The translations under genes and the position numbers were made by a program. DNA of 64,000 nucleotides, taken from positions 297,446 through 361,445 of IMG/VR virus record IMGVR_UViG_3300028833_000001; one strand, written 5' to 3'. Below the pieces are notes generated by a model. The model did not search any database and was not told the DNA's origin. It worked only from the letters and a program-made list of their open reading frames with translations. Origin of the DNA: a virus. Taxonomy: Duplodnaviria > Heunggongvirae > Uroviricota > Caudoviricetes. Numbering within the stretch: the first letter of the stretch is position 1; every line of letters starts with the position of its first letter. Below, in pieces: positions 9,901 to 51,265 of this stretch.

Positions 9901-12900
9901 GGAAGAAACTTATGAGTCAAGATATCCAGACCCAGATGATTATGGTAAACCAGGGAAAAAACAATACAATCCAGAAGCGTTATATGAATTAACCAAATGG
10001 CTTGTATCGACCAGACATGAATCCGATAATATAAATTCAATCAATAGTTCTAATACCATAACAATTGACAGTTCTTTTGCTGAACGTATTAATGAGTACC
10101 AATATGGTTATACACCAGATACAGCTAGTAATTATATTTATGACAGTGGTACAATGCCAGATACCCCAGAAAACAGACAAAAGAAATTCAACACTGAAAA
10201 ATGGGAGCATTTTGACGTGTGGAAACTTGCTGGGTATTATATATTCTTAATGAGATATGGAGCTGTTGACCAATTTGTTAAAAATACAATGCTGTTTACT
10301 GATGGTAACGGAAAATATGATTTAAGAACTGATAAAAAATATAGGAAATGGTTCTTTATTAACTATGATAATGACTGTTTGTTTGGATTGAGGAATAACG
10401 GACAGTTAGCGTTTGATTGGACGCTTGATAGACAGACAATCGATTCCGCTTCTGATATAATAGTTGACGACCAGGCCGATAATGACGATTCTAATAATGC
10501 GTATGCTATGATGGGCCACGATTCTACATTGTGGAACAATCTTGAACGCGATGATGAATTTATGAGAATGGTTCGTGATTTGGATTACTCGATGAGTAAA
10601 TACAAATTAAATTACGATAACATGGTTACCGAATTTGATACCAACCAAACTGAACGTTGGTGTGAAAGAATTTACAATGCCAACGAAAAATACAAATATA
10701 TTAACTCAGCAAAGGGTATTGGTGATATGAGCGGAAGCCCAGTAAACAACTTGTGGATGCTACAGGGTACGAGAAGGTCACATAGACACTGGTGGATAGC
10801 TAACCATTTTAACTTACTTGATGCACGTTGGTTGTCAGGAGATTATAAAAATACTTATGTTGAGATTAAAACTAACTGTAAAGCTGGGACCGCGATACAT
10901 GCAGTCGCTTCAATGAAATATTATTACGCTTGGGGTCAACAAAAGAAAATATACGAAAGTAATATGGTGCGCAATGAGGGCGAACCAATCGATTTTATTT
11001 TCGATACAGACCAATCACAAGGCGACCCAGTATATATTTATGCGTTTAATAAGTTTTCTGAACTTGATTTTTCAGAAATTGCACCGTTAGCGTATGAGGG
11101 TTGTTTTAAGTTTGTTCTTGGCGACACATTAGTATCAAACAGCCTTAAAAAGTTAGTACTTGGTAATCCTTCTGTTGTTAATAATGCCGCCCAAGACACA
11201 ACGACTTGGATTAATTTACCTAATTTGGAATATCTCGATATAACTAATTGGGCAGGTATTACAAGCGTTCCGTTACATGCATTTAACAATTTAACAGTAT
11301 TTAAGGCTGGTGGGTCAAGAATTGGCTCATTTGAGCCTTCTGAAGGTTCTAATTTTTCACAGGTTGTATTGCCGACAACAATTAGACATATTAACTTAAA
11401 TAACGTTAAATTTGGTAATAATATGAACCAAAATTTGGAATATACACCAAATACTACGTTAGATAATTTAATTATAAGTAATAATGACGGTGTTGGGTTA
11501 AATTATTATAATAAATTAATATTGCCGTGGATTACCTCAATCGAAAATTCAGTGCAATCAGATTTATTGTATGCAAACAAAACATTATCAATTAACAATG
11601 TTGATTGGGTCTTTAATAATATGAACTCCGTTCGTATTTTTAAGAACTTCAAGACCAAAGGAATGTCGTTTAATATTACTGGTAGAATTGATTTAACTCG
11701 TTGCGGTAATTTATCAATGGAAAATATTGATGAGTTAAAGGAAATTTTTGGTGAAAATTGCTTCAACCCAGTAACCGCTAAACTATATGTACTTACTCCA
11801 GAGAGTATTTTTATTCAATCCGATTCTGACCATATGGTTGCTGGACAAACAGCAATATTTCGTAGGGAAATTTATCCAGACGAAACATCTGTTGACGGTA
11901 AATTGCAATCGTTAAGATTTTTATTGGTTAAGGAAACGGACCAGGATAAATCAGATAACCCAGAAGTTATTGAGGATAATGTAACACAAAAGAGATATTT
12001 GGAATTGACTCCAGATGAAATTGAGGCTAAAAGACATGGATTGACACTGGTTAACAATGCTTTGTTAGCTGATTATGCAACGTTGTATGTGCCAGAAGAG
12101 GTGACAGGAGTGGATACTGAGTGTCTTGTTATGGTATATATGGATTTAACTGGTGGCGGAGAAAAAATAGCTGTAATGAATTTCACGATTAAAGACCCTA
12201 CTTACGCCACAACAGCAACCATTAACGGACAAACATCACAATACCATAACACTGAGTACGTTTATAGTATAGATTTAAGAACGCCAAGCAATAACGTTCC
12301 TATTGGAAGTTATACTGTTGAGTGGAGCCTATCTGGTAACGGTGTACAATACGTAGAATCAAGCGGTATCATAGATGGTAATCAATTAAGGTACAGTATT
12401 GTAATTGGAAATGACCAGCCAGAGGTATCAGAAGAAATGGTTTTACTGGCAAAAGTGTATAACCATAATGGCACGCAAGTCACTAGAACTGTTGAAATTC
12501 TCGTACTAAATGAAGAAGTTATTATGACGTCGCAAAGCAACCAATTTGTTTTAAGTAGATTAAACGCAGCTGGTTGGACATCTGACCCTTATGCGACTGC
12601 AATGAAAAAACAAGAGGCAGAAGCTGTTACAGTCGAAATGTTTGCCAATGACATGCCGTTTTATCAACAGACGCCAGAAAATGGATTTTCTTTTACAGAA
12701 TTACAGTATTTTACTGGTTTAACTAAATTGCCAGATAACGCATTTGCTGGTTCTAATATAAAACATATATCATTGCCATTAACAATGACTGGGCTTGGCA
12801 TTTCTTGCTTTGAATCATGTTCAATGCTAACTGGAATAACAGAAAACGGTGTGGCTGAATATACTGAAAATGATATTCCGTTTAACGTAATCCATAGTGG

Positions 12901-39472: not shown

Positions 39473-41092
39473 ATGATAAAAATTATTGTTGCAGTAGGTA
39501 ATTATATCCCAGAAAAGGGGTTTCCAATTGGAAAAAACGGTGGCTTGGCCTGGAATTTTCCAGAAGACCTTAAATGGTTCAGAAAAACAACTGAACACAA
39601 TATAGTTGTAATGGGCAGAAACACGTATAAATCATTCGGAGGTAAGCCATTACAGAATAGAGACAATTATATAGTTTCAAATTCAATGACCGAAATCCCA
39701 GAAGGATTTTGCGGGATTTTGCACAGCATTGATGAAATTGTTGACTTATCTAAAAACCAAATAGGAGACGTGTATATTATTGGTGGCGCAGAGTTATACA
39801 GGTCAGTTCTTGACGCTGATATTGTTGATGAAGTTTTAAACGACTTTATTGATGTTGAAGTTCCAGATGCAGACACATTTTTCCAGCCTTTGGATTTGAA
39901 TAAGTGGAAAATTGATGAAGAGGGTATAAGATTAAGCGATAAATGCACTGTCAATACATTTAAACATGCAAAATTTTTTAATGATGTTGATGAACAATAT
40001 TTGAATTTGGTGCAAGATGTTATAGTTAATGGTGAATTGAAAGAAACACGGGCTGGAATGACAAGGTCTGTTTTTGGAAAGCAACTTCGTTTCAACCTTA
40101 AAAATGGTTTGCCATTGCTAACAACAAAAAAAGTTTACACAAACGGTATCATTCATGAACTTATTTGGTTCCTTAAAGGCGATACGAATATTAAATATCT
40201 TGTTGACAATAATGTGCATATATGGGATGATGACGCATACAGATATTATCTTGAGCTTGTTGAAAAAAACAACGAAGTCTTTAAATGTGATGACACACCA
40301 TTGTTGAATGCTCATTACTTTGAGCCTATCACAAAGGAAGAGTTCTTGAAAGCTGTCATTGAAGAAAAAGACTGTTGGTTATACCTGGATAGATTGGCTG
40401 GTTTTATGTCATACTATCCAAACAACTATTATATTCATTATAAATTTGGCGACCTTGGTCCTGTTTATGGTGAACAATGGAGAAACTGGTATGGCGTTGA
40501 CCAAATAAAGACAGTTATTGAAACATTAAGAACAAATCCAGATGACAGAAGAATGATTGTCTCTGCTTGGAATGTTAAAGAATTGGATAAAATGGCTCTT
40601 CCTCCTTGTCATTACTCATTTCAATTTTATACAAAAAAAATGGATATTGTAGAAAGAATGAATTGGGCCTTAGAACATAATTTAAATTGTTGGGATGAAA
40701 AATCTTTGGATGACAATAATGTACCTTCACGGAAATTAAGTTGCCTCTGGAATCAACGTAGTGTAGATTCAATATGCGGATTGCCGTTCAATATAGCATC
40801 ATATGCAATTCTTACTTATATGATTGCACAATGCTGTAATATGAAACCAGATGAATTGATATTTAATGGTGGAGACGTTCATGTATATGAAAACCATATA
40901 GAAGCATTTACAGAACAATTATACAGAAATCCACATAAATATGCATTACCACAATTGGAGCTTAATCCAAACGTAAAAGAAATTGATGATTTTAGGGCAT
41001 ATGATATTAAAATAGTTGGATATCAATCATACCCAGCGATAAAATATCAATTAAATGTAGGCCTAAATAATAACAATGGCGAAGCTAAATAA
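39473..41092 (+). CDS. thyA: Bifunctional dihydrofolate reductase-thymidylate synthase
   Basis: DHFR: IGKNGGLAW..EDLKWF, VMGRNT, IIGGAELY, ADTFF. TS: PLLTTKK, LGPVYG.QWR, MALPPCH, QRSVD, PFNIASY. Confidence 0.95.
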   Translation: MIKIIVAVGNYIPEKGFPIGKNGGLAWNFPEDLKWFRKTTEHNIVVMGRNTYKSFGGKPLQNRDNYIVSNSMTEIPEGFCGILHSIDEIVDLSKNQIGDVYIIGGAELYRSVLDADIVDEVLNDFIDVEVPDADTFFQPLDLNKWKIDEEGIRLSDKCTVNTFKHAKFFNDVDEQYLNLVQDVIVNGELKETRAGMTRSVFGKQLRFNLKNGLPLLTTKKVYTNGIIHELIWFLKGDTNIKYLVDNNVHIWDDDAYRYYLELVEKNNEVFKCDDTPLLNAHYFEPITKEEFLKAVIEEKDCWLYLDRLAGFMSYYPNNYYIHYKFGDLGPVYGEQWRNWYGVDQIKTVIETLRTNPDDRRMIVSAWNVKELDKMALPPCHYSFQFYTKKMDIVERMNWALEHNLNCWDEKSLDDNNVPSRKLSCLWNQRSVDSICGLPFNIASYAILTYMIAQCCNMKPDELIFNGGDVHVYENHIEAFTEQLYRNPHKYALPQLELNPNVKEIDDFRAYDIKIVGYQSYPAIKYQLNVGLNNNNGEAK

Positions 41093-42335: not shown

Positions 42336-42416
42336 TGTCATTTTGACGTATTAAATGTCAATTTGGCACATAAGCATGACAAAATGCCATAAATTTAAAT
42401 TGGCATGATGTTTGCA
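42336..42416 (+). promoter_or_regulatory. Sigma54-type promoter with three upstream TGNCA-N3-TGNC(A/G) boxes
   Basis: TGGCATGATGTTTGCA (42401-42416) has exact -24/-12 spacing. Boxes start at 42336, 42356 and 42377. Confidence 0.65.
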
Positions 42417-42434
42417 TAAATAAAAAAACGACAT

Positions 42435-42507
42435 GGTGCCGTTAGCTCAGTGGGTAGAGCGCATGTCTGTGGAACATGAGGCGTTGGTTCAAATCCAACA
42501 CGGCACC
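42435..42507 (+). tRNA. tRNA-His(GTG)
   Basis: Cloverleaf with G-1 and C73; CATGT-CTGTGGA-ACATG. Confidence 0.95.
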
Positions 42508-42566
42508 CGAAAAAAAAAGTTTGGAAGTTTAAAAAAAGATTTGTAATCTTACAAACACAAACGAGA

Positions 42567-42577
42567 GTTCTTTGAAA
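42567..42577 (+). promoter_or_regulatory. boxA-like antitermination site
   Basis: GTTCTTTGAAA shortly after a promoter-like TTTG..TAATCTTAC. Confidence 0.5.
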
Positions 42578-42589
42578 AAATTGAAATAT

Positions 42590-43036
42590 AAAGTGATTGT
42601 GAGAATGATAGCAAAACAACTATCATGCATAGGCGAGAAATCCCTATGTAGAATCTCCTAAATTCGGTAGAATCCTTAAAGGCGTTAGCCTTCGTAAGAG
42701 AGAAAATATGTAACCTCACTAAACAATAATGTGGAAGGACTAACCGAGCGAAAATGTAATGCGGAATTTCAATAAGTTAGGAAGATATTACATAATCGTG
42801 TAGAGGCCAAACGGGAGATACCTAAGTTGGAATTTGTATAATTGAGGGATAGCGCAAGCAAGTATGTTTTCTTTTAACAGTTAACAGAACAATCAAATTA
42901 TACATCTTGCAAGAATTCCAATATGGTAAGATGGTCCAGGCCACAACAACACTACAAGCAGTGTCGAAACCAGACATAAGTACTGTTGTAACAAAGTGTT
43001 GGCTATGATAACATAGTGTGGCATCACAATTACTTT
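42590..43036 (+). ncRNA. Group I intron-like structured RNA closed by a 13-bp terminal helix
   Basis: P3 ATCTCCT/GGGAGAT, P4 TTCGGT/ACCGAG, P7 GAGGCCA/TGGTCC, P8, P9. Ends AAAGTGATTGTGA/TCACAATTACTTT. Confidence 0.75.
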
Positions 43037-43041
43037 TACTT

Positions 43042-43114
43042 GCGCCCGTAACTCAGCTGGTAGAGTACATCCCTTTTAAGGATGGAGTCGTGGGTTCGAA
43101 TCCCACCGAGCGCA
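43042..43114 (+). tRNA. tRNA-Lys(TTT)
   Basis: Cloverleaf; CATCC-CTTTTAA-GGATG. Confidence 0.93.
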
Positions 43115-43141
43115 CAATAATAAATTTAAAATTATAATAAA

Positions 43142-43319
43142 ATGGAAGACGGGGCAAAAATTAAAAGAGTATCTTAAAAAAGAATTTGAATGGAATAATC
43201 ATAAGAAGTATAGGAAATATTTTGATGAATGGTATTCAAATTTAACAGAAAATCAAATACTATATTATAAAAGTTATTCTATTGGACAGAAATCACCATG
43301 GATTAAAATTGACAAATAA
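43142..43319 (+). pseudogene. Small ORF with apparent frameshift in an A-run
   Basis: The ATG frame stops after 11 codons. A shifted frame reads KLKEYLKKEFEWNNHKKYRKYFDEWY... to TAA. Confidence 0.35.
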
Positions 43320-43379
43320 AAAAAATGTAAGAAGATTTGGAAAATTTAAATTTAAATTGTATTCTTACATAGCGTTGAA

Positions 43380-43452
43380 CGGGTAGTGGCGCAGTTGGTA
43401 GCGCGCTTCATTTGGGATGAAGGGGTCGCAGGTTCGAGTCCTGTCTACCCGA
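43380..43452 (+). tRNA. tRNA-Pro(TGG)
   Basis: Cloverleaf; CTTCA-TTTGGGA-TGAAG. Confidence 0.95.
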
Positions 43453-43460
43453 CAAAAAAA

Positions 43461-43476
43461 GTTCTTTGACATATTG
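43461..43476 (+). promoter_or_regulatory. boxA-like antitermination site
   Basis: GTTCTTTGACATATTG, rrn-leader-like. Confidence 0.55.
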
Positions 43477-43574
43477 GAGAGAAGCTATTGAAATATATGT
43501 GGTAAAAACAATTTTTTGTTTTTAAAGCCAAATTATATCGTATAGTGGGCCTTTGTCTGCTGTACGATTTTTTC

Positions 43575-43664
43575 GGAGGGGTGGCCGAGTGGTTTAAGGC
43601 AGCGGTCTTGAAAACCGCCGAGGTGTAACAGCCTCCGTGGGTTCGAATCCCACCCCCTCCGCCA
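43575..43664 (+). tRNA. tRNA-Ser(TGA)
   Basis: Long variable arm, G73, encoded CCA. Confidence 0.95.
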
Positions 43665-43726
43665 TAATATAATGAAAACGTATATACATTTTGATTATCA
43701 CAAATATTTATTAATAAACCAATACT

Positions 43727-44443
43727 ATGAATCAGAAAAGAGAATACGTTAGAAAAAATTTGGATATAATAAACAAAATGATAGAAAACAAACGACCTAA
43801 GTTTGAAATAGCTAGGGTTTTGGGAGTTAAATATTCCACATTAGATAAATATTTAAAAGAATTTGGTATTGATTATAAAGGAAACCCAAATAGAAAGGGA
43901 ATTCCGCATATGGAAGGAAGAATGCTAATTGAAGAATATTTAAATGGAAATAGAAACATACAAGCATCTAAACTAAGACAAAAACTAATAGAAAATGGTT
44001 TAAAAGAAGAAAAATGTGAATGCTGTGGGTTAACTGAATGGATGGGTAAAAAAATTCCGTTAGAACTTCACCATAAAAATATGAACCATAACGATAATAG
44101 TTTAGACAATCTTCAAATACTTTGTTCTAATTGTCATTCTTTAGCACATGAATATAATAATACAAAAGGTAAACCAGAAAGTTCTATTGATACTATTTTA
44201 TTAAAAAAACGTGTTAAAGAGGTTGGTCATTGCAAACAGTGCGGAAAAGAATTAACAAATAGCCAGAAAATTTATTGTTCACAAGAGTGCGCTCATTTAA
44301 ATGTTAGTAAAATACCACAAAAAAACGAATTAATTGATAAATTAAATGAGTTTAACTGGAATAAAACAAAAACTGGTAAGTATTTTGGCGTAAGTGATAA
44401 CGCAATTCGTAAATGGATTAAAAAGTACGACATAAAAAAATAA
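43727..44443 (+). CDS. HNH endonuclease with HTH and Zn-ribbon modules
   Basis: CECCG..LELHHKNMNHNDNSLDNLQILCSNCH, with N- and C-terminal HTH. Confidence 0.9.
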   Translation: MNQKREYVRKNLDIINKMIENKRPKFEIARVLGVKYSTLDKYLKEFGIDYKGNPNRKGIPHMEGRMLIEEYLNGNRNIQASKLRQKLIENGLKEEKCECCGLTEWMGKKIPLELHHKNMNHNDNSLDNLQILCSNCHSLAHEYNNTKGKPESSIDTILLKKRVKEVGHCKQCGKELTNSQKIYCSQECAHLNVSKIPQKNELIDKLNEFNWNKTKTGKYFGVSDNAIRKWIKKYDIKK

Positions 44444-44444
44444 T

Positions 44445-44521
44445 ACCGCTGTGGGCAAATTGGTAAAGTCGGCTATTTTAGGGGTAGCGTCATATTGTCG
44501 GTTCGACTCCGACCAGCGGTA
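44445..44521 (+). tRNA. tRNA-Leu(TAG), short variable region
   Basis: GCTAT-TTTAGGG-GTAGC; 8-nt variable region. Confidence 0.8.
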
Positions 44522-44534
44522 CAATAAATAATTT

Positions 44535-44618
44535 GGCTCTGTGGTGGAATTGGTAGACACGACAGACTTAAAATCTGTTGTCCGAAAGGACGTGTGGGTT
44601 CGAGTCCCATTGGAGCCA
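44535..44618 (+). tRNA. tRNA-Leu(TAA)
   Basis: Cloverleaf with variable arm. Confidence 0.95.
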
Positions 44619-44623
44619 CATAA

Positions 44624-44769
44624 GCTCCTATAGTTCAATGGACAGAACAGAAGTTTCCTATACAAGAGTAAACTTGTTTAAATCATTTCTATGTGAAATT
44701 GGTTTTATTGGGTTCGAGTCCCACACATAGAACAAACTTCAAATCTTGGTTCGAATCCAAGTAGGAGTA
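44624..44769 (+). tRNA. tRNA-Arg(CCT) interrupted by a 74-nt insertion (44660-44733)
   Basis: Removing the insert gives GAAGT-TTCCTAA-ACTTC with normal D, T and acceptor arms. Confidence 0.85.
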
Positions 44770-44788
44770 CTAAACACATAACATATAT

Positions 44789-44873
44789 GGGAGTGCGGTC
44801 ACGATGGTGGAGTGGCGGCGGTCTGTAAAACCGTTACAACGAAACACAGTAGGTTCGAATCCTACCACTCCCA
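44789..44873 (+). tRNA. tRNA-Tyr(GTA), atypical D and variable arms
   Basis: GCGGT-CTGTAAA-ACCGT. Confidence 0.85.
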
Positions 44874-44892
44874 CGAAACAGCGAACATGCAC

Positions 44893-45030
44893 AAGCGCAA
44901 ACTGAAGGGGAATTGGTAAACCCTCGCCCCTAGATAACATCAGAGCAGGGAGGTTTGGTGAGGCAACCGTAAAAGTAATCCAGCATGTGTAGCAAGATGG
45001 AAGTTCTGGTTCGAGTCCAGATGAGCGCTT
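44893..45030 (+). ncRNA. tRNA-shell RNA (D and T arms, ~80-nt non-tRNA middle)
   Basis: AAGCGC/GCGCTT, GGG-GAATTGGTAAA-CCC, TCTGG-TTCGAGT-CCAGA. Confidence 0.55.
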
Positions 45031-45040
45031 ATTTTATGAT

Positions 45041-45114
45041 GGGCCCATAGTGATAGTTGGTTAGCACGGGAGCTTTGCAAGCTCTTAGCCTGGGTTCGAG
45101 TCCCAGTGGGTCCA
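45041..45114 (+). tRNA. tRNA-Ala(TGC)
   Basis: G3-U70 pair, cloverleaf. Confidence 0.93.
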
Positions 45115-45120
45115 CAAATT

Positions 45121-45293
45121 AAAAACAAACAAGGAGAGTGGGCTCGGTGATAAAAAACCTTGTATGAAATGGGTTACAGGGGAAAACCGAAAAATAATGT
45201 CCTGCAAAGGATATTCACACGTAGGCTGGTTAATTATCGTGGCCAGGGCCTTTGCTATCAGGTGACTACGCAAATCCTGATGTGTTTGTTTTT
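45121..45293 (+). ncRNA. Unidentified multi-junction structured RNA
   Basis: 11-bp closing stem plus at least 7 nested helices. Confidence 0.6.
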
Positions 45294-45331
45294 TTTGGTT
45301 CTATGGCTGAACTAGTAGACGCGACAGAGTC

Positions 45332-45387
45332 ATCAAGGCAAAAGAACGGTTCGACTCCTTAGTGTAACGGTAGCACATTGTCTTGAT
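45332..45387 (+). ncRNA. Permuted tRNA-elbow mimic (T loop before D arm)
   Basis: ATCAAGGCAA/TTGTCTTGAT encloses GG-TTCGACT-CC and then GTG-TAACGGTAG-CAC. Confidence 0.45.
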
Positions 45388-45395
45388 TTTCTCAC

Positions 45396-45483
45396 GGAGG
45401 GTTACCCAAGCTGGTGAAGGGGACGGTTTGCTAAACCGTTAGGTCACGAAAGTGGCGCGAGAGTTCGAGCCTCTCACCCTCCG
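45396..45483 (+). tRNA. tRNA-Ser(GCT)
   Basis: Long variable arm, G73. Confidence 0.95.
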
Positions 45484-45502
45484 CAAACAAATTTGGCTTT
45501 AT

Positions 45503-45607
45503 AATACACATAAAGGACACACTCGCCAATACCAATTGGCAAGCGAGAGAAGTTAGCGCAGGACGGAATTGAGGCCGTAAGTGTGATAGTGAAATGTAAA
45601 GTGTATT
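45503..45607 (+). ncRNA. Unidentified structured RNA
   Basis: AATACAC/GTGTATT closing stem; CACAC(T)/(A)GTGTG; CTCGC/GCGAG; ACGG/CCGT. Confidence 0.4.
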
Positions 45608-45615
45608 TTTTGATA

Positions 45616-45689
45616 AATGCTGTGATGGTGTAATAGGAAGCATCACCAGAATATCTGGAGGTACAGGTTCAAGTCCGAAACACAGCATT
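45616..45689 (+). ncRNA. tRNA-like RNA lacking an anticodon loop
   Basis: 9-bp AATGCTGTG/CACAGCATT, D arm, CCAGA-ATA-TCTGG, T loop. Confidence 0.55.
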
Positions 45690-45702
45690 GTTTTTAATAT
45701 AT

Positions 45703-45817
45703 GTGTTGATGGCGCAATGGTAGACGCACACATGCACGTGGTTCGCGGTTCGAGTCCGCAAGTAGTTGGGCACAACGAAAAAATGGTAGAATGATGGTTC
45801 GAATCCATCTCAACACA
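45703..45817 (+). ncRNA. tRNA-shell RNA with a second internal T-loop hairpin
   Basis: GTGTTGA/TCAACAC, D arm, internal GCGG-TTCGAGT-CCGC, terminal GATGG-TTCGAAT-CCATC. Confidence 0.6.
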
Positions 45818-45824
45818 CAATAAA

Positions 45825-46003
45825 TCCCCTATTAGTTCAATTGGCAGAACGTAGTTATATCAATTCTTTGACGAAAGAATAAATTGTATAACTAAGGTTG
45901 TAATTATTTTGTGAAGTAGTGACTTGTTGACAATGGGTGCGCAACAGAATCAAAGATTAGAGCTGTGAATCATTTTAACGGGGTTCGAATCCAACATAGG
46001 GGA
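45825..46003 (+). ncRNA. tRNA-shell RNA with extended anticodon arm and ~80-nt insert before the T loop
   Basis: TCCCCTAT/ATAGGGGA, GTTC-AATTGGCA-GAAC, TAGTTATA/TATAACTA, GG-TTCGAAT-CC. Confidence 0.55.
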
Positions 46004-46016
46004 CAGGTATAAGTAT

Positions 46017-46086
46017 CGGGATGTAGTTTAATGTTAAAATAATTGTGCTTAGGACAGTGATATAGGTGCGAATCCTATCATCTCGG
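46017..46086 (+). pseudogene. Degenerate duplicate of the adjacent interrupted tRNA-Pro
   Basis: Shares its 5' end, T arm and trailer CAAATATTTCATAT with 46120-46252. Lacks G18G19, U33 and the TTC T-loop. Confidence 0.65.
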
Positions 46087-46119
46087 CAAATATTTCATAT
46101 AGTATAAACATAATAGCAT

Positions 46120-46252
46120 CGGGATGTAGTTTAATTTGGTAAAATGCGTTAATTTTTTCGTGTTTTGTTCTTTAAAAACACAGACAGCAACTTTTCTTTA
46201 AAATTATTGTTTTGGGGAAACCGTGTTATAGGTTCGAATCCTATCATCCCGA
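46120..46252 (+). tRNA. tRNA-Pro(GGG) interrupted at 28/29 by a 60-nt insertion (46149-46208)
   Basis: Removing the insert gives CGGTT-TTGGGGA-AACCG. C1-G72 and A73 give Pro identity. Confidence 0.75.
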
Positions 46253-46266
46253 CAAATATTTCATAT

Positions 46267-46340
46267 GGGCCATCAGTCCAGTTGGAGTGGATGCCACCCT
46301 GTCACGGTGGAGAACGCGGGTTCGAGTCCCGCATGGCCCG
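46267..46340 (+). tRNA. tRNA-Asp(GTC)
   Basis: Cloverleaf, G73. Confidence 0.93.
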
Positions 46341-46350
46341 CTTTATAAGC

Positions 46351-46464
46351 AACATTCCCAGTGAAAAAGGGTTAGTAGTAGCGTTGTACAGCCAGTAACC
46401 CTGAGATAGTATCAAAATCAACGGTTAGACGTAGATGAACTGTAAGTACAACTTTGGGAATGTT
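46351..46464 (+). ncRNA. Unidentified pseudoknotted RNA
   Basis: AACATTCCCA/TGGGAATGTT; AGGGTTA/TAACCCT; loop GTTGTAC pairs with downstream GTACAAC. Confidence 0.6.
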
Positions 46465-46478
46465 TGTAATAATAAAAT

Positions 46479-46552
46479 AGCGGATTAGCTCAGTTGGTTA
46501 GAGCAGTACTCTTATAAAGTAAAGGTCCCCAGTTCAAGCCTGGGATTCGCTA
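46479..46552 (+). tRNA. tRNA-Ile(TAT)
   Basis: (G)TACT-CTTATAA-AGTA(A); otherwise canonical. Confidence 0.85.
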
Positions 46553-46562
46553 CAATCAATAG

Positions 46563-46743
46563 TGCGGGATGGAGCAGAGGTCAGCTCGTCAGGCTCAATA
46601 CAGAGTGGTTTTCTGAAAAAAACTGTTGATGCCAATTGTTCAAGAGAAGAGCCGATACACAATCAAATTGTGTGTCGAGGCTGGTTCGAGTCCAGCTGGC
46701 GTCGCTAACCTGAAGGTCGGGGGTTCGAATCCCTCTCCCGCTA
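46563..46743 (+). tRNA. Initiator tRNA-fMet(CAT) interrupted inside the anticodon by a 108-nt insertion (46598-46705)
   Basis: 1:72 mismatch and A11-U24. Removing the insert gives TCAGG-CTCATAA-CCTGA. Confidence 0.88.
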
Positions 46744-46938
46744 CAAATCCAGGTGCATAACGATTTGAAACCGTAGTGGGTGTTAAAACCACAGCCTGGA
46801 ATAATAAGATTGCAGCAATACTAGTCAGGCTGGTCTTTCCGTGAAAGTCGGACGTATTACCATGCAACGATAGCGTTGATACCTGTATAATGGCAGGTGT
46901 AGCAAATGGCCCGTCAGGTCGCTACTGACGGTTTTTAT

Positions 46939-47015
46939 GGGGCTGTAGCTCAGTTGGAAGAGCGCTGGACTGAAAATCCAGGACGTTAGCGGTGGTTCGA
47001 TTCCACCCAGCCCCG
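46939..47015 (+). tRNA. tRNA-Phe(GAA), 9-nt variable region, G73
   Basis: CTGGA-CTGAAAA-TCCAG. Confidence 0.85.
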
Positions 47016-47123
47016 CGTGAAAGGATGTAGTGTTCTTTGCCGTGTTTCAACAAAGTGCATCAACCAGCCTTTTGGATGTGGCGCCCAAGTCCATGAAAGG
47101 AGGACAAAATGAAAGCGGAGTAT

Positions 47124-47198
47124 GGGCTCGTAGCTCAGTCTGGTAGAGCATCTGATTTGCAATCAGAGGGTCATTGGTTCAAATCCCATCGTGGTCCA
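47124..47198 (+). tRNA. Second tRNA-Ala(TGC), imperfect acceptor and T stems (possibly decaying)
   Basis: TCTGA-TTTGCAA-TCAGA; extra base in the 3' acceptor strand. Confidence 0.7.
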
Positions 47199-47253
47199 CA
47201 AGCGATATCCGAATCAGTGAAATTATCGTTCAATGAGTTGAAAGAAGATATCA

Positions 47254-47326
47254 AGTGTTTAGTATATCGGAAGTACGTTACCAAGAACGAGTTGGTAAAA
47301 GTGTGAGTTCGAATCCCACAACACTA
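47254..47326 (+). ncRNA. Atypical tRNA-like RNA (7-bp anticodon stem, purine-rich loop)
   Basis: AGTGTT/AACACT, GTAT/GTAC, TTACCAA-GAACGAG-TTGGTAA, TTCGAAT loop. Confidence 0.55.
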
Positions 47327-47333
47327 TAATAAT

Positions 47334-47404
47334 AGGTTCCTAGTTCAATGGTAGAATAATGGTCTCCAAAACCATAGATTGAGGTTCGAGTCCTTGGGTT
47401 CCTG
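47334..47404 (+). tRNA. tRNA-Trp(CCA)
   Basis: ATGGT-CTCCAAA-ACCAT; two T:T mismatches in the acceptor stem. Confidence 0.85.
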
Positions 47405-47413
47405 CAATAAAAT

Positions 47414-47496
47414 AGCCAAGTGGCGGAATGGTAGACGCGAAGGTCTCAAAAACCTTTGGGGTAACCCCCGTGCGGGTTCAAGTCCCGCCTTGGCTA
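47414..47496 (+). tRNA. tRNA-Leu(CAA)
   Basis: Cloverleaf with variable arm. Confidence 0.93.
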
Positions 47497-47511
47497 CTGA
47501 TAGAAAAATAA

Positions 47512-47581
47512 AGGATACATACAGCAAACCTTTTTTTTAAGCATCAAACTTTTAATTTGAAAACGCTAAGAAAGTATCCTG
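47512..47581 (+). ncRNA. Free-standing ACAGCAA module presenting a Lys(TTT)-like anticodon stem-loop
   Basis: AGGATAC/GTATCCT, ACAGCAA at 47521, TCAAA-CTTTTAA-TTTGA. Confidence 0.65.
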
Positions 47582-47587
47582 TTTTAA

Positions 47588-47660
47588 CGCCCTATCGACA
47601 AGTGGTTTAAGTCATCACCCTTTCACGGTGGAGTCACGGGTTCGAATCCCGTTGGGGCGA
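47588..47660 (+). tRNA. tRNA-Glu(TTC)
   Basis: TCACC-CTTTCAC-GGTGG. Confidence 0.93.
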
Positions 47661-47679
47661 CAATAAAAAAAAATCAAAA

Positions 47680-48222
47680 ATGGAACAAGACGAATTGAAT
47701 CACAACAGGCGTGTTTTCGCAAATATTAACAAATTAGATATTGAAGATGTCCATCCAATCCCAAAGGTCGAATTAGTTGTTGGGAAAACATATAAAGGCA
47801 ATTGTAGGAATTCAGATAATGCGGTTTGGGATGGAAAAGTATTTTGGTACGACAGGCACAAGTTTGGTAGTACATTTAGGGAAAGTATAAATCACTACGA
47901 AGATGATGATGGTTACGATGTTTTTGTCCCATTTGAAACAGATGAATCGTTTATTGTTCTTCCAGAAGATTCGGTTAAGAAACTTTCTGATAGAGATTAT
48001 TGGGGTACTATTGAGAAAATATTTATGGAAATTACCAATTTGATGACGGAAAAAGCATTTATTAATGAAGCTAAACATATGTACCCAAATATGTCAGATG
48101 AAGACATTAGAAAACAATTGAAAAACATGCTTTACGATAATTATGGAAATATTGTAAGAGGTGCTGATATGTTTGATTTTAGTGGTAAGTTAAAAGGTGA
48201 ACCAGGAACTCCTGGAAAATAA
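47680..48222 (+). CDS. Hypothetical protein within the tRNA array
   Basis: 180 aa, codon style matches the other genes. Confidence 0.7.
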   Translation: MEQDELNHNRRVFANINKLDIEDVHPIPKVELVVGKTYKGNCRNSDNAVWDGKVFWYDRHKFGSTFRESINHYEDDDGYDVFVPFETDESFIVLPEDSVKKLSDRDYWGTIEKIFMEITNLMTEKAFINEAKHMYPNMSDEDIRKQLKNMLYDNYGNIVRGADMFDFSGKLKGEPGTPGK

Positions 48223-48237
48223 TAAAACAAAAAAAAC

Positions 48238-48310
48238 GCCGATGTAGCTCAATTGGCAGAGCGTTACACTTGTAATGTAAATATTGTAGGTTCGATTCCT
48301 ATCATCGGCT
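48238..48310 (+). tRNA. tRNA-Thr(TGT)
   Basis: TTACA-CTTGTAA-TGTAA. Confidence 0.93.
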
Positions 48311-48378
48311 CTTAAAATAAAATTTATCCCGAAACGTGTTTTTAGCTTTTTATGACTATTTATAAAAAAAATAGTAAT

Positions 48379-49083
48379 ATGAATAATTTTGAAAATTGCA
48401 AATCGTTAAATGACATTGCTAGGCAAGAATTTGGAAAAGCAAACTATACTAATCGTGAGAAAGCTAAAAAACTATTATTTGAACACGGAATAGATTGGTT
48501 AGATTGGCTAGAATCTATTAAAATTTCTAATAAAAAGTTTTGTCTTGTTTGTGGTAAAGAATTAAGAAATGGTCAAACAAAATTTTGCAGCCATTCATGT
48601 TCTGCTGGATATAACAATAAGTTTCGAAAAACATATAAAGATAATGAAAGCCGAGAACATCATGAAAAAATTACCAAAAGTGACAAATTCTGTTTGTATT
48701 GTGGCGCAAAATTAACAAATCAACAAAAATTATTTTGTAATAATAAATGTCAACAAGATTTCAAGTATAAAGAATATATAGACCGATGGATAAATGGTGA
48801 TGAAAATGGTTTAAAGGGCCAGTATTCTTTATCAAGGCACATCAGGCGATTTTTATTGGAAAAAACAAATTGTAAATGTGAAAAATGTGGCTGGGGAGAA
48901 AAAAATCCATATACAAACACAATCCCATTAGAAATACATCATATTGATGGTGATTATACAAATAACAAGGAAGAGAATCTTCAGGTTTTGTGTCCAAATT
49001 GTCATTCTTTAACAGAAACACACAAATCACATAATAAGAACGGAAGACAAGGTAGAAGAAAATATTATAAAAAAACAGAATAA
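48379..49083 (+). CDS. HNH endonuclease with two CxxC..FCxxxC Zn modules
   Basis: CEKCG..LEIHHIDGDYTNNKEENLQVLCPNCH. Start placed at MNNFE after ACTATTTAT (48355-48363). Confidence 0.9.
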   Translation: MNNFENCKSLNDIARQEFGKANYTNREKAKKLLFEHGIDWLDWLESIKISNKKFCLVCGKELRNGQTKFCSHSCSAGYNNKFRKTYKDNESREHHEKITKSDKFCLYCGAKLTNQQKLFCNNKCQQDFKYKEYIDRWINGDENGLKGQYSLSRHIRRFLLEKTNCKCEKCGWGEKNPYTNTIPLEIHHIDGDYTNNKEENLQVLCPNCHSLTETHKSHNKNGRQGRRKYYKKTE

Positions 49084-49217
49084 GCTAAAGCTCTTTACCG
49101 ATACGTAGCGGTAAATGGTGCGTACCCAGGGTCAGACGCACGGTTGTATTCTGTACCTATATATGGATGATGTACAGCTTTTATGTGTAGGTTAAACAAA
49201 TATGGCCCGACCAATAA

Positions 49218-49350
49218 TATCTTAATGCTGAGCGTGAATGAAGAAAACGGAAACCAAAGGCAACATAGCTGTAGCAGAATTTGATTGCAATGGATAACAG
49301 TGAAACACGCAAGATTCAGTAGATAATGCTTTGACGGTTGCATTAAGGTA
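49218..49350 (+). ncRNA. Unidentified helix-closed RNA
   Basis: TATCTTAATGC/GCATTAAGGTA; inner CTGAG/TTCAG and GCGTG/CACGC. Confidence 0.5.
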
Positions 49351-49354
49351 GCAA

Positions 49355-49423
49355 GTGGAGTAGCTTTATAAGGATGAGCCTTGGATTTTACCAAGAGGTG
49401 GTAGTTCGAATCTGCCCTCCACA
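49355..49423 (+). ncRNA. tRNA-like RNA with a 6-nt anticodon loop
   Basis: GTGGAG/CTCCAC, GCTT/GAGC, CTTGG-ATTTTA-CCAAG, GGTAG-TTCGAAT-CTGCC. Confidence 0.6.
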
Positions 49424-49642
49424 ACAAAAGCAAACGAAACCAGTTGACCAGATGGGATAAAACGCATAGTCATCCGTGATGCCACTGCGGATTAATAAAT
49501 AGATGGCTAAGACGGAGGTAACGTTACCGTTTAAACAACTATATTTTTAATGCTGACAGAGCGGGCGTGGAAAGTTCTTGAAATGTTAATATAAAACTGC
49601 CAGAATCGCAAAATTGTACGGGTTTGCACGTGCAAAACTTTT

Positions 49643-49714
49643 GGGGAGGTAGCTCAACGGTAGAGCAACTGGCTGTTAACCAGTAGGTTGTGGGTTCGAA
49701 ACCCACCCTCCCCG
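49643..49714 (+). tRNA. tRNA-Asn(GTT)
   Basis: ACTGG-CTGTTAA-CCAGT, G73. Confidence 0.92.
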
Positions 49715-49719
49715 CGAAT

Positions 49720-50132
49720 ATACCAATTAACAGTAGGCTTGAAAGCAGCCATCTGATAATGAGTTGCGAGAGGAAGTTTGCGTGGAAGTCATGACTCCGC
49801 AAAATAACAAGGCGCATGTGAGTAACTTGGCAATAAGCATGTGAGAAACACCTCAGGAATAGCGAACGTGGAAATCCCCGATGCAAAGAAAGGAACACAG
49901 TTGAAATACTGTGCGAGGTTCCAGTAGCGTGACGGTGCATCGAAGCTATGTAGCTAAGTTTTATGTAAGCCCCAACAGTACGAGAGGAACCTGGGGTCAA
50001 TGGGTGCCATGAATTTGGTTTCTATGCCGTAAGTGAGTCGGTAAAGAACGCGAGAAGTATCAAGTGAAGACTCGCGCCCAAAAGCATAAAACAGTCCTTA
50101 GAGCATTTGGCGTGGCAGCACATAATTGGTAT
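49720..50132 (+). ncRNA. Large ornate RNA with a 23S H43/H44 mimic (GOLLD-like candidate)
   Basis: ATACCAATTA/TAATTGGTAT ends; AGTAGGCTTGAAAGCAGCCATC; GGCGTGGCAGCAC; many internal helices. Confidence 0.7.
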
Positions 50133-50135
50133 TAT

Positions 50136-50207
50136 GCGGGTATAGCACAACGGTTAGTGTGCCAGCTTGCCATGCTGGAAATGTCAGTTCGATTCTGATT
50201 ACCCGCT
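50136..50207 (+). tRNA. tRNA-Gly(GCC)
   Basis: CCAGC-TTGCCAT-GCTGG, U73. Confidence 0.93.
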
Positions 50208-50212
50208 CATAT

Positions 50213-50286
50213 GGCGGCATAGCGGAGTTGGTTTCATGCGCCGCTCTCATAAGGCGGAGACGGTGGTTCGAATCCACCTGCCGCCA
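50213..50286 (+). tRNA. tRNA-Met(CAT), elongator type
   Basis: G1-C72 paired; CCGCT-CTCATAA-GGCGG. Ile2 is not strictly excluded. Confidence 0.85.
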
Positions 50287-50287
50287 C

Positions 50288-50512
50288 AAGTCAAGAACAG
50301 ACCACCGAGTAGTGTTCGGGGTAAATTGAATGGGGATGTATACTTAACCAGTCAATGTAGTCTTGGGTGGTGTGACCCTCAGCCCGATGAAAAGTGTCAG
50401 TTATCGTGAGGTACTGTAGCGCAACGCAACAGGAGGTAAAACCCTATGTGGTAACGCAATCCTCGTCTAGCCGAGGTTTCTCCAGTCCGTAGCTCGTAAA
50501 TTTTCTTGACTT
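50288..50512 (+). ncRNA. Unidentified ~225-nt structured RNA
   Basis: AAGTCAAGAA/TTCTTGACTT perfect closing stem; CGAGT/GCTCG, TGGGGA/TCTCCA, CCTCG/CGAGG. Confidence 0.6.
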
Positions 50513-50521
50513 ATTTTTTTT

Positions 50522-50640
50522 CGGGGAGTAGCTCAGTTGGTTAGAGCGCGTAATGTAGATTCTTGTAAAAGAATCAAACAGCAATGTTTACGAATGTCAT
50601 TTGAAGACCGTGGTCGTGGGTTCGAGTCCCACCTCCCCAG
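50522..50640 (+). tRNA. tRNA-Gln(TTG) interrupted at 28/29 by a 45-nt insertion (50551-50595)
   Basis: Removing the insert gives CGGTC-ATTTGAA-GACCG; weak 1:72 pair, G73. Confidence 0.8.
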
Positions 50641-50648
50641 CAAATTAT

Positions 50649-50803
50649 ATTTGGCTAATTTGAGGTTCAAGAAGGCCCCCGTAAGATGGACAATCGTGGG
50701 GGCAATGCTTGAGATGGATACTGTGAAGGGACAGCCATAAGTCATGAAGTACAGTTAGATGTGGGGTCTGGTGGAATGACAGACTGTGTAGGATTAACCA
50801 AAT
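50649..50803 (+). ncRNA. Unidentified ~155-nt structured RNA
   Basis: ATTTGGCTAATTT/GGATTAACCAAAT; TCAAG/CTTGA; GCCCCC/GGGGGC; GGTCTG/CAGACT. Confidence 0.55.
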
Positions 50804-50807
50804 TTAT

Positions 50808-50878
50808 TGAGCCATCGTCTAACGGCAAGACACCAGATTTTGGTTCTGGGAATCGAGGTTCGAATCCTCGTGGCTCAA
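50808..50878 (+). tRNA. tRNA-Gln(TTG)
   Basis: U1-A72; CCAGA-TTTTGGT-TCTGG. Confidence 0.93.
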
Positions 50879-50885
50879 CAAACAA

Positions 50886-50958
50886 CTTCCCATAGTTCAA
50901 TGGATTAGAACGTGAGTCCACGAAACTCAAGATTGGGGTTCGAGTCCCTGTGGGGAGA
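50886..50958 (+). tRNA. tRNA-Arg(ACG) with C33
   Basis: TGAGT-CCACGAA-ACTCA, A20. Confidence 0.85.
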
Positions 50959-50996
50959 CTTAATACATATATCGAAATAGTTTCAATCCAGAATAT

Positions 50997-51071
50997 GCGT
51001 CTGTAGCTCAGTTTGGTTAGAGCACTACACTGATAATGTAGGGGTCGCTGGTTCAAGTCCAGCCAGACGCA
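50997..51071 (+). tRNA. tRNA-Ile(GAT)
   Basis: CTACA-CTGATAA-TGTAG. Confidence 0.95.
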
Positions 51072-51104
51072 CTTGAGTTGATGCTAACATGGCACAACTA
51101 TTAT

Positions 51105-51180
51105 GCGGGTGTAGCTCAGTTGGTTCAGTAGCGCTTGCCTTACAAGCAAGAGGTCGTAGGTTCGACTCCTACCATCCGCA
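51105..51180 (+). tRNA. tRNA-Val(TAC)
   Basis: CTTGC-CTTACAA-GCAAG. Confidence 0.92.
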
Positions 51181-51190
51181 CATTTATTAT

Positions 51191-51265
51191 GCTCCAGTAG
51201 CTCAATGGATGAGCGGCACCCTTCTAAGGTGCGGGTTGTAGGTTCGAGTCCTACCTGGAGTACCA
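51191..51265 (+). tRNA. tRNA-Arg(TCT)
   Basis: GCACC-CTTCTAA-GGTGC, encoded CCA. Confidence 0.95.

Follow-up and report, generated by a model that had tools for sequence, protein, structure and literature searches.

Conserved structured RNAs as cassettes between the tRNA genes of a jumbo-phage array

We analyzed the tRNA array of a tailed phage (Caudoviricetes) represented by IMG/VR record IMGVR_UViG_3300028833_000001, which is 361,445 bp long, has a G+C content of 33.6% and is rated complete by CheckV. The window considered here is the final 64 kb of this record (64,000 nucleotides, record positions 297,446 to 361,445), and positions given below are those of the window. Its predicted proteins include a tail fibre, an SbcC-like protein and a fused dihydrofolate reductase-thymidylate synthase (ThyA-DHFR, 539 aa, 39473-41092), which together with the complete 361-kb genome identify the source as a jumbo phage. 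The array lies just downstream of the ThyA-DHFR gene, at 42436-51265, with a G+C content of 39.6%, above the genome value. It combines about 31 tRNA-type genes, packed into 8.8 kb, with structured RNAs in the spacers between them, and at least five of these RNAs are conserved families that recur in other phages.

The tRNA-type genes comprise 26 standard, four interrupted and one weak gene (Table 1). All 26 tRNAs reported by ARAGORN are on the + strand; Rfam adds three interrupted tRNAs and the weak one (32.7 bits), and ARAGORN, when introns are allowed, finds the fourth interrupted tRNA, which has an insert of 108 nt. No array tRNA has a Cys anticodon, and the single further tRNA in the 361-kb genome, Gly(TCC), is far from the array. 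The one-strand array without Cys and its four interrupted members, both proposed in a first-pass annotation of the sequence, were thus recovered by the two programs. Only three open reading frames (ORFs) lie within the array, coding for two HNH endonucleases and one protein without an assigned function.

Known RNA families do not account for the spacers. An Rfam scan of the whole array, at the gathering score and at E-values up to 5, returned only tRNAs and chance-level matches. In particular, the models of tmRNA, RNase P RNA, 6S RNA, Y RNA, GOLLD and ROOL had no match at the gathering score; below it, YrlA and permuted tmRNA gave chance-level partial matches (E 0.8-4.7) and the other four models none. 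ARAGORN likewise detected no tmRNA in the array. As a separate observation, a permuted tmRNA (RF04321, 62 bits) is present at 9522-9756 among the tRNAs of a related contig, L002, and the window has none. Among GenBank phages, nothing resembled the array or its two largest non-tRNA RNAs, of 447 and 413 nt.

Related contigs were found with the ThyA-DHFR protein as an anchor; the L numbers used here denote related or matching contigs and loci fetched for comparison. L003 is an 11-kb contig with a syntenic array, and its ThyA-DHFR is 86% identical to that of the window. Third codon positions of this gene are 76% identical between the two, and many spacers 91-98%. Since AT-rich spacers are equally conserved and some tRNAs have been replaced, part of the likeness to L003 reflects mosaic recent descent, and identity alone was therefore not counted as selection. 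Window segments 44541-45321, 47587-50133 and 50516-50804 are missing from L003. L002 belongs to a different phage, whose ORF180 protein is only 56% identical to that of the window, and it holds copies of the 413-nt RNA (91% identity), the 225-nt RNA (about 90%) and the 155-nt RNA (85%), each of which fills the gap between two tRNAs other than those flanking it in the window. A metagenome scan with ThyA-DHFR added only short fragments from close relatives, and the proteins of 206 and 554 aa that flank the array have no relatives in IMG/VR.

Altogether, five spacers (413, 447, 225, 155 and 114 nt) recur between different tRNAs, usually 0-15 nt away from them. In several phages, their closing helices start 0-10 nt after the preceding tRNA and end 2-9 nt before the next one (13-15 nt for the 114-nt RNA). 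Elsewhere in the array, many tRNAs follow one another at gaps of only 4-12 nt, with no structured spacer. Judged by these sequence comparisons, the five spacers are discrete RNA genes that act as between-tRNA cassettes in several phages. The earlier suggestion that spacers encode structured RNAs is therefore supported by at least five conserved families on the tRNA strand, with covariation among their homologs.

The 413-nt RNA carries copies of two functional sites of 23S rRNA. It is closed by a 10-bp helix that begins 5 nt after tRNA-Asn and stops 3 nt short of tRNA-Gly. The RNA matches E. coli rrlH exactly over 11 nt (1069-1079) and over 12 nt (2654-2665), and it contains the complete 14-nt sarcin-ricin word AGUACGAGAGGAAC (PMC4574749), located in a hairpin. 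Its 21-nt H43 word is identical to the word in true 23S genes of many bacteria, and in a divergent family member, L269, 30 of 33 positions match E. coli 1056-1088 and are accompanied by an H44-like hairpin. When every spacer was aligned to E. coli 16S, 23S and 5S rRNA and compared with shuffled sequences, the 413-nt RNA alone gave a convincing result. In comparison with the GTPase-associated centre (H42-H44, E. coli 1051-1108) and the sarcin-ricin loop (H95), it thus has the H43 word, an H44-like hairpin and the exact 14-nt word. However, it is not part of any 23S gene: a variable closing helix takes the place of H42, a long conserved helix with an insert separates H43 from H44, and the sarcin-ricin word follows the H43 word after about 245 nt, whereas the two elements of 23S rRNA are about 1,400-1,600 nt apart. 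In those contigs with true 23S genes that extend to the sarcin-ricin word, it is located about 1,400-1,500 nt beyond the H43 word.

Copies are found in other viruses as well. The H43 word occurs in 39 viral contigs outside any 23S gene, with the sequence that follows not being that of 23S, and in about 15 of these loci a sarcin-ricin-like word is located 234-291 nt downstream. Same-strand tRNAs are present in the fetched stretch of 26 of the 39 loci (3 to 26 tRNAs in 23 of them, and 5-26 in most of the 39), and in six loci the next tRNA begins 4-6 nt after the closing helix. The smallest member, at 116 nt, has just the closing helix, H43 and H44, and the largest is about 424 nt long. A search of IMG/VR with the 14-nt sarcin-ricin word by itself gave mostly unrelated matches, the sole relatives being L269 and again the L002 contig. 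A literature search found no paper describing this family. The H43 word with an H44-like hairpin was also seen in eight cyanobacterial genome contigs (L421, L428, L429, L431, L437, L439, L443 and L445), with no sarcin-ricin word within the stretch examined, which extended up to 3 kb downstream and often less; these loci could be incomplete 23S genes, or leaders of ribosomal-protein genes that mimic this rRNA site.

An alignment of seven members of the 413-nt family, with 89 predicted pairs, supports the structure. Pairing is kept in 90.6% of the pair cells, compared with 38-47% when partners are slid by 1-3 columns. Double-sided changes occur at 31 pairs, compared with 16.1 +/- 2.6 in shuffled alignments, none of 500 shuffles reaching 31. 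The H43 and sarcin-ricin words are invariant in all seven members, and the stem of the sarcin-ricin hairpin covaries. The closing helix differs wholly in sequence between members and retains its pairing, and its G-U pairs would be mismatches on the strand opposite the tRNAs.

The 447-nt RNA was listed in the first-pass annotation among the spacers closed by a terminal helix; it turned out to be a relative of group I introns and not an unknown RNA. Its 13-bp closing helix ends 5 nt before tRNA-Lys, and its 5' flank is an AT-rich spacer. A 27-nt degenerate word taken from the block that is conserved most strongly matches at least 120 viral contigs, and in 13 of 20 loci checked the Rfam group I intron model (RF00028) covers this word. 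Close relatives of the 447-nt RNA are located inside ARAGORN tRNAs in about 12 places, as anticodon-loop introns of 450-780 nt. A second core word, AAATTCGG, lies upstream of the first in the 447-nt RNA and its family, so that the words of the J3/4-P4 and J6/7-P7-P3 regions are both present in the correct order. The 3' end of the RNA, including its last G, aligns with true introns and is directly followed by the 3' strand of the 13-bp helix.

In sharing both core words in order, the 447-nt RNA resembles the group I introns of tRNA anticodon loops (RF00028; the Azoarcus and cyanobacterial type). It differs from them in lacking tRNA exons, in its 13-bp closing helix, and in the distance between the core words, which is 139-255 nt in its subfamily and 54-62 nt in RF00028-positive introns of phage tRNA arrays. 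This expansion explains why RF00028 misses the subfamily: the model does not match the 447-nt RNA (500 nt searched) even at E-values up to 10, and the close relatives fail as well. ARAGORN with introns allowed finds no tRNA around the RNA in the window, nor around its counterparts in L003, L004 and L051. By its sequence, then, the 447-nt RNA is related to group I introns but is now free-standing, with putative ribozyme activity.

The three remaining families, of 225, 155 and 114 nt, are represented by 3-5 sequences each; they have no Rfam match and no convincing similarity to rRNA. In the 225-nt RNA, two sequences differ by six double-sided changes, five of them in one hairpin, and the L002 copy has a 56-nt extension at a hairpin tip. 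For the 155-nt RNA, a model built from the family identified a third, diverged member adjoining a tRNA in L132, and the three sequences show nine double-sided changes, several in the closing helix. The 114-nt RNA is present in L003 and L161 at about 95% identity; its covariance model identified a diverged member in L377 and a weaker match in L002. Conserved single-stranded words are found in both the 155- and 114-nt families. The 155-nt RNA also shares an exact 10-nt word (50768-50777) with positions 80-89 of E. coli 5S rRNA (z=3.0 against shuffles), a weak lead.

Eight spacers had been described in the first-pass annotation as closed by terminal helices, and every helix is present exactly where it was placed, with contiguous pairs ranging from 6+6 to 13. 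That these helices are better than expected in shuffled sequence held in part. Comparison with dinucleotide shuffles, for helices that span a whole gap and lie at each end no more than 15 nt from the flanking gene, singled out three of 16 gaps, namely 46351-46464 (P=0.003), 49720-50132 (P=0.008) and 50288-50512 (P=0.014). With only one end anchored at a tRNA, the same kind of comparison supported 42590-43036 (P=0.017), was borderline for 45121-45293 (P=0.09) and 49218-49350 (P=0.08), and placed the 7-bp helix of 45503-45607 at chance level. The helix of 50649-50803 failed the contiguous-helix test and is supported by covariation. Minimum free energy (MFE) z-scores are moderate, from -4.6 to +0.3, the best being -4.6 for 42590-43036 and -3.0 for 46351-46464. 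The single-genome statistics thus back about half of the helix claims, and the comparative evidence is stronger.

Release of these RNAs could depend on the processing of their neighbors. In bacteria, RNase Z cuts tRNA precursors that lack CCA after the discriminator base, and cutting by RNase P produces the 5' end of every tRNA. In the array, CCA is encoded in merely 2 of 30 tRNA genes, and in 28 of 30 the discriminator is directly followed by C, most often then by A. The spacing between cassettes and tRNAs and the near absence of encoded CCA fit release by RNase P and RNase Z, which we infer from this arrangement. The island would be transcribed from the + strand as one or a few long precursors; RNase P would cut at each tRNA 5' end, and an RNase Z-type enzyme, as expected for genes without encoded CCA, would cut after each discriminator base. 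Cuts at the flanking tRNAs would then free each cassette with a 5' overhang of 0-10 nt and a 3' overhang of 2-15 nt beside its stable terminal helix, and the paired ends would shield the freed RNA from exonucleases.

The description of the array as a polycistronic carrier needs to be modified in one respect. Two + strand terminator-like hairpins with U runs stand just before tRNA-Ser (43537-43568) and tRNA-Phe (46911-46931), and together with the conserved AT-rich spacers they suggest that the array is divided into several transcription units and is not a single long polycistron. These spacers could hold promoters. One 9-nt word, which may be a promoter element, occurs at 42567-42575 and again at 43461-43469, each time in a conserved AT-rich spacer, the first preceding the 447-nt RNA and the second tRNA-Ser. 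At both sites the Rfam model of DUF2693 RNA has a weak partial match with its 5' end, and in the window as a whole the word shows no enrichment. The Bacteroidetes-type promoter word is absent from the array.

We consider it probable that the array is an RNA-gene island in which tRNA genes are interleaved with independently evolving, helix-closed noncoding RNA cassettes that would be freed by tRNA processing. The cargo is mixed, consisting of the 413-nt copy of an rRNA site, the exon-less 447-nt group I relative, the three orphans, tRNA-like RNAs and insert-bearing tRNAs. Several observations count against this interpretation. Besides the terminator-like hairpins, scans of the array for sigma-70-type promoters and for terminators remained at chance level. 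Three of the eight claimed closed spacers (45503-45607, 45121-45293 and 49218-49350) lack support, and relatives of the latter two were not found in the data searched. Several spacers have weak MFE z-scores. The high identity to L003 extends to AT-rich spacers, and part of it may come from recent common descent and not from selection. Finally, L269 is not adjacent to tRNAs, so that a tRNA flank is not obligatory.

The spacers might instead be debris without any functional RNA, made up of decayed tRNAs, dead introns and the traffic of homing endonucleases, with the helices as leftover acceptor and anticodon stems. T-arm words with poor acceptor pairing in 44875-45040, 45294-45395, 45608-46016 and 47198-47333 agree with such decay, as do the large presence and absence differences from L003, the two HNH genes inside the array, the descent of the 447-nt RNA from a tRNA intron and the weak z-scores. 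Yet five modules keep their structure through compensatory changes, and their identity remains at 85-95% in phages with far more diverged proteins; the 13-bp closing helix cannot come from a decayed 5-bp anticodon stem; and the H43 and sarcin-ricin words are invariant across seven members. Debris accounts for some spacers (44875-45040 and parts of 45608-46016) and not for the five covarying families; as an explanation of the array it is unlikely.

A purely cis-acting role, in which the structured spacers insulate the folding and processing of pre-tRNAs or set transcript stability and are then degraded, seems to us quite improbable. It would be in line with the tight placement between tRNAs, with closing helices that each isolate their spacer, and with the lack of evidence for a trans target. 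On the other hand, many tRNA pairs of the array manage with gaps of 4-12 nt, and simple insulation calls neither for a length of 413 nt nor for invariant copies of two functional sites of rRNA. Single-stranded words are conserved in the 155- and 114-nt families, and L269 lies away from tRNAs. Such a role may nevertheless apply to the small orphan RNAs. It is very unlikely that small mobile elements of DNA (MITE-like or hairpin-ended) make up the closed spacers, with the helix as their terminal inverted repeat. Close relatives do differ in which cassettes they have, the cassettes occur between different tRNAs, cassette boundaries fall at tRNA ends, and endonuclease genes are nearby. But the elements have no common terminal sequence and no second copy in the genome, and an all-against-all comparison of spacers, which revealed no family of repeated elements, speaks against a MITE. 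The terminal repeats covary within a family and include G-U pairs that are mismatches on the other strand, and no target-site duplication was seen at the single junction aligned, no systematic search having been made.

Returning to the island of tRNA-bounded RNA cassettes, our leading guess about its function is that the cargo would imitate parts of the translation machinery and bind or divert host factors or defence toxins. Extended to jumbo-phage arrays in general, this would make them modular RNA arsenals, whose exchanged cassettes encode free-standing mimics (of the factor-docking site, of anticodon arms, and of acceptor/T-arm minihelices inside tRNAs), with an exon-less ribozyme alongside, all released by host enzymes as decoys or sponges for toxins or translation factors. 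This extension is speculative, and we regard it as possible rather than probable.

Noncoding RNAs in or near phage tRNA clusters are already known. Bacteriophage T4 makes RNA C and RNA D, whose role is unknown, from its tRNA region (PMC3014915). Like these two RNAs (species 1 and 2), which are transcribed together with the T4 cluster, the cassettes are non-tRNA RNAs inside a phage tRNA cluster, on the same strand. T4 has two small RNAs, whereas at least five families of larger RNAs are present here, among them a copy of rRNA sites and a relative of ribozymes, and they move between phages as cassettes. We found no sequence relationship between T4 and the array RNAs. The large structured RNAs GOLLD and ROOL, known from phages and prophages, are often encoded near tRNA islands, sometimes with tRNAs inside (PMC12286853). 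The array RNAs are similarly encoded beside phage tRNAs, but they are smaller (114-447 nt) and of several unrelated kinds, and the Rfam GOLLD and ROOL models do not match them at E-values up to 5. The proposed processing also resembles a known arrangement. In animal mitochondria, tRNAs punctuate polycistronic transcripts, and RNase P and RNase Z free the mRNAs and rRNAs between them. The tRNAs of the array would likewise serve as cutting signals, whereas the released products would be small structured RNAs with paired ends. What is new is the number and variety of the cargo, the exchange of tRNA-bounded cassettes and the nature of two modules; some individual modules may be new kinds of RNA.

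Phage tRNA arrays are usually viewed as codon-usage helpers or as spares against tRNA-cutting defences. The present array demonstrates that the same loci can carry varied, exchangeable structured RNAs, one of them copying the ribosomal factor-docking site. If tRNA enzymes do release the cassettes, such arrays would serve phages as a general platform for expressing noncoding RNAs, and they would be a good hunting ground for RNA families not yet described, for derivatives of ribozymes and for counter-defence based on RNA. As defined sequences, the cassettes are open to synthesis and to testing for processing, protein binding and effects on host defences.

Among the interrupted tRNAs, three inserts have one architecture: those of window tRNA-Arg(CCT) (44660-44733) and of the tRNA with CAT-type exons (46598-46705), and that of tRNA-Lys in L003 (4583-4656 of the contig). 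The same five letters directly follow the anticodon in each, and then come a small hairpin and an acceptor-like stem with a T-arm. The inserts are polymorphic among close relatives, since Arg(CCT) is intact in L003, Lys is intact in the window, and the tRNA at 46563 is intact in L400 and L413. Conservation of the exons suggests that the inserts are removed or tolerated. These short inserts may be of a new kind, excised from the tRNA as tRNA-like minihelices. The two other interrupted tRNAs share a 7-nt word, which occurs three times in the array, always on the + strand: in their anticodon-arm inserts (46148-46222 and 50550-50598) and in the free spacer 47498-47587.

The phage genome also encodes an Rnl2-type RNA ligase outside the window (G000:C1:7011-7583, - strand; PF09414, 76.8 bits, in a 418-aa frame), which could act in repairing tRNAs or in joining the interrupted ones. 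RtcB was not found in the genome, and a search for a T4 Rnl1-type ligase had no match there, nor in control genomes searched in the same way, which makes the Rnl1 negative uninformative.

The array had further been credited with about seven tRNA-like RNAs, which roughly agrees with our count: on its + strand there are nine T-arm words outside annotated tRNAs and one in the Arg(CCT) insert, and six of these ten have a well-paired T stem. Those in 44875-46016 mark several tRNA-like or decayed tRNAs, and the spacer 44875-45040 is probably a tRNA remnant. The gene at 46017-46087, to which ARAGORN assigns a stop anticodon, scores 42.5 bits with Rfam, the alignment of its anticodon arm being poor; it is perhaps no true suppressor tRNA.

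Table 1. Genes, RNA families and spacers of the tRNA array, in window coordinates
Feature	Position	Strand	Evidence or remark
tRNA-His(GTG)	42436..42508	+	ARAGORN, Rfam
447-nt RNA, group I intron family, no tRNA exons	42590..43036	+	core words, relatives
tRNA-Lys(TTT)	43042..43115	+	ARAGORN; uninterrupted here, 74-nt insert in L003 copy
tRNA-Pro(TGG)	43380..43453	+	ARAGORN, Rfam
Conserved AT-rich spacer, terminator-like hairpin 43537-43568	43454..43574	+	95% identical to L003
tRNA-Ser(TGA)	43575..43664	+	ARAGORN, Rfam
HNH endonuclease gene, 238 aa	43727..44443	+	
tRNA-Leu(TAG)	44445..44522	+	ARAGORN, Rfam
tRNA-Leu(TAA)	44535..44619	+	ARAGORN, Rfam
tRNA-Arg(CCT), 74-nt insert after anticodon	44624..44769	+	insert ends in acceptor-like stem + T-arm; L003 copy uninterrupted
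tRNA-Tyr(GTA)	44789..44874	+	ARAGORN, Rfam
Spacer, T-arm word at 45009, poor acceptor pairing	44875..45040	+	no support as folded RNA
tRNA-Ala(TGC)	45041..45115	+	ARAGORN, Rfam
Candidate RNA, 173 nt, 11-bp closing helix	45121..45293	+	borderline statistics, no relative found
tRNA-Ser(GCT)	45396..45484	+	ARAGORN, Rfam
Claimed closed spacer, 7-bp helix at chance	45503..45607	+	98% identical in L003
tRNA-like RNA, 7-bp acceptor-type helix, T-arm and second internal T-arm	45703..45817	+	
178-nt stretch, ends can pair as 7-bp acceptor-type helix around weak T-arm word	45826..46003	+	weak candidate
Aberrant tRNA, ARAGORN anticodon TTA (stop)	46017..46087	+	paralogue of following interrupted tRNA
Interrupted tRNA, ~73-nt insert in anticodon arm	46120..46252	+	Rfam, ARAGORN
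tRNA-Asp(GTC)	46267..46341	+	ARAGORN, Rfam
114-nt orphan RNA, 11-bp closing helix	46351..46464	+	relatives L003, L161, L377
tRNA-Ile(TAT)	46479..46553	+	ARAGORN, Rfam
tRNA with CAT-type exons, 108-nt insert holding own acceptor-like stem + T-arm	46563..46743	+	uninterrupted in L400, L413
Conserved spacer, terminator-like hairpin 46911-46931	46744..46938	+	
tRNA-Phe(GAA)	46939..47016	+	ARAGORN, Rfam
tRNA-Ala(TGC), copy 2	47124..47197	+	ARAGORN, Rfam
tRNA-Trp(CCA)	47334..47405	+	ARAGORN, Rfam
tRNA-Leu(CAA)	47414..47497	+	ARAGORN, Rfam
90-nt spacer module with 7-nt word	47498..47587	+	partial relatives L005, L383, L142
tRNA-Glu(TTC)	47588..47661	+	ARAGORN, Rfam
ORF180, 180 aa (phrog_18490), function unassigned	47680..48222	+	
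tRNA-Thr(TGT)	48238..48311	+	ARAGORN, Rfam
HNH endonuclease gene, 243 aa	48352..49083	+	
Candidate RNA, 133 nt, 11-bp closing helix, 3 nt before weak tRNA	49218..49350	+	borderline, no relative found
Weak tRNA-like gene	49354..49424	+	Rfam 32.7 bits
tRNA-Asn(GTT)	49643..49715	+	ARAGORN, Rfam
413-nt RNA, 23S H43/H44 copy + sarcin-ricin hairpin in insert	49720..50132	+	shuffles, covariation
tRNA-Gly(GCC)	50136..50208	+	ARAGORN, Rfam
tRNA-Met(CAT)	50213..50287	+	ARAGORN, Rfam
225-nt orphan RNA, 10-bp closing helix right after tRNA-Met	50288..50512	+	relatives L003, L002
Interrupted tRNA, ~45-nt insert in anticodon arm	50522..50640	+	Rfam, ARAGORN
155-nt orphan RNA, 6+6-bp closing helix, 4 nt before tRNA-Gln	50649..50803	+	relatives L002, L132
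tRNA-Gln(TTG)	50808..50879	+	ARAGORN, Rfam
tRNA-Arg(ACG)	50886..50959	+	ARAGORN, Rfam
tRNA-Ile(GAT)	50997..51072	+	ARAGORN, Rfam
tRNA-Val(TAC)	51105..51181	+	ARAGORN, Rfam
tRNA-Arg(TCT)	51191..51265	+	ARAGORN, Rfam

Within the conserved spacer before tRNA-Phe, the block 46827-46941 is identical to L003 over 115 nt, which exceeds any identical run within a tRNA, and it ends in the hairpin and U run. Elsewhere in the window, a very long ORF of 2,739 aa is located at 6905-15124.

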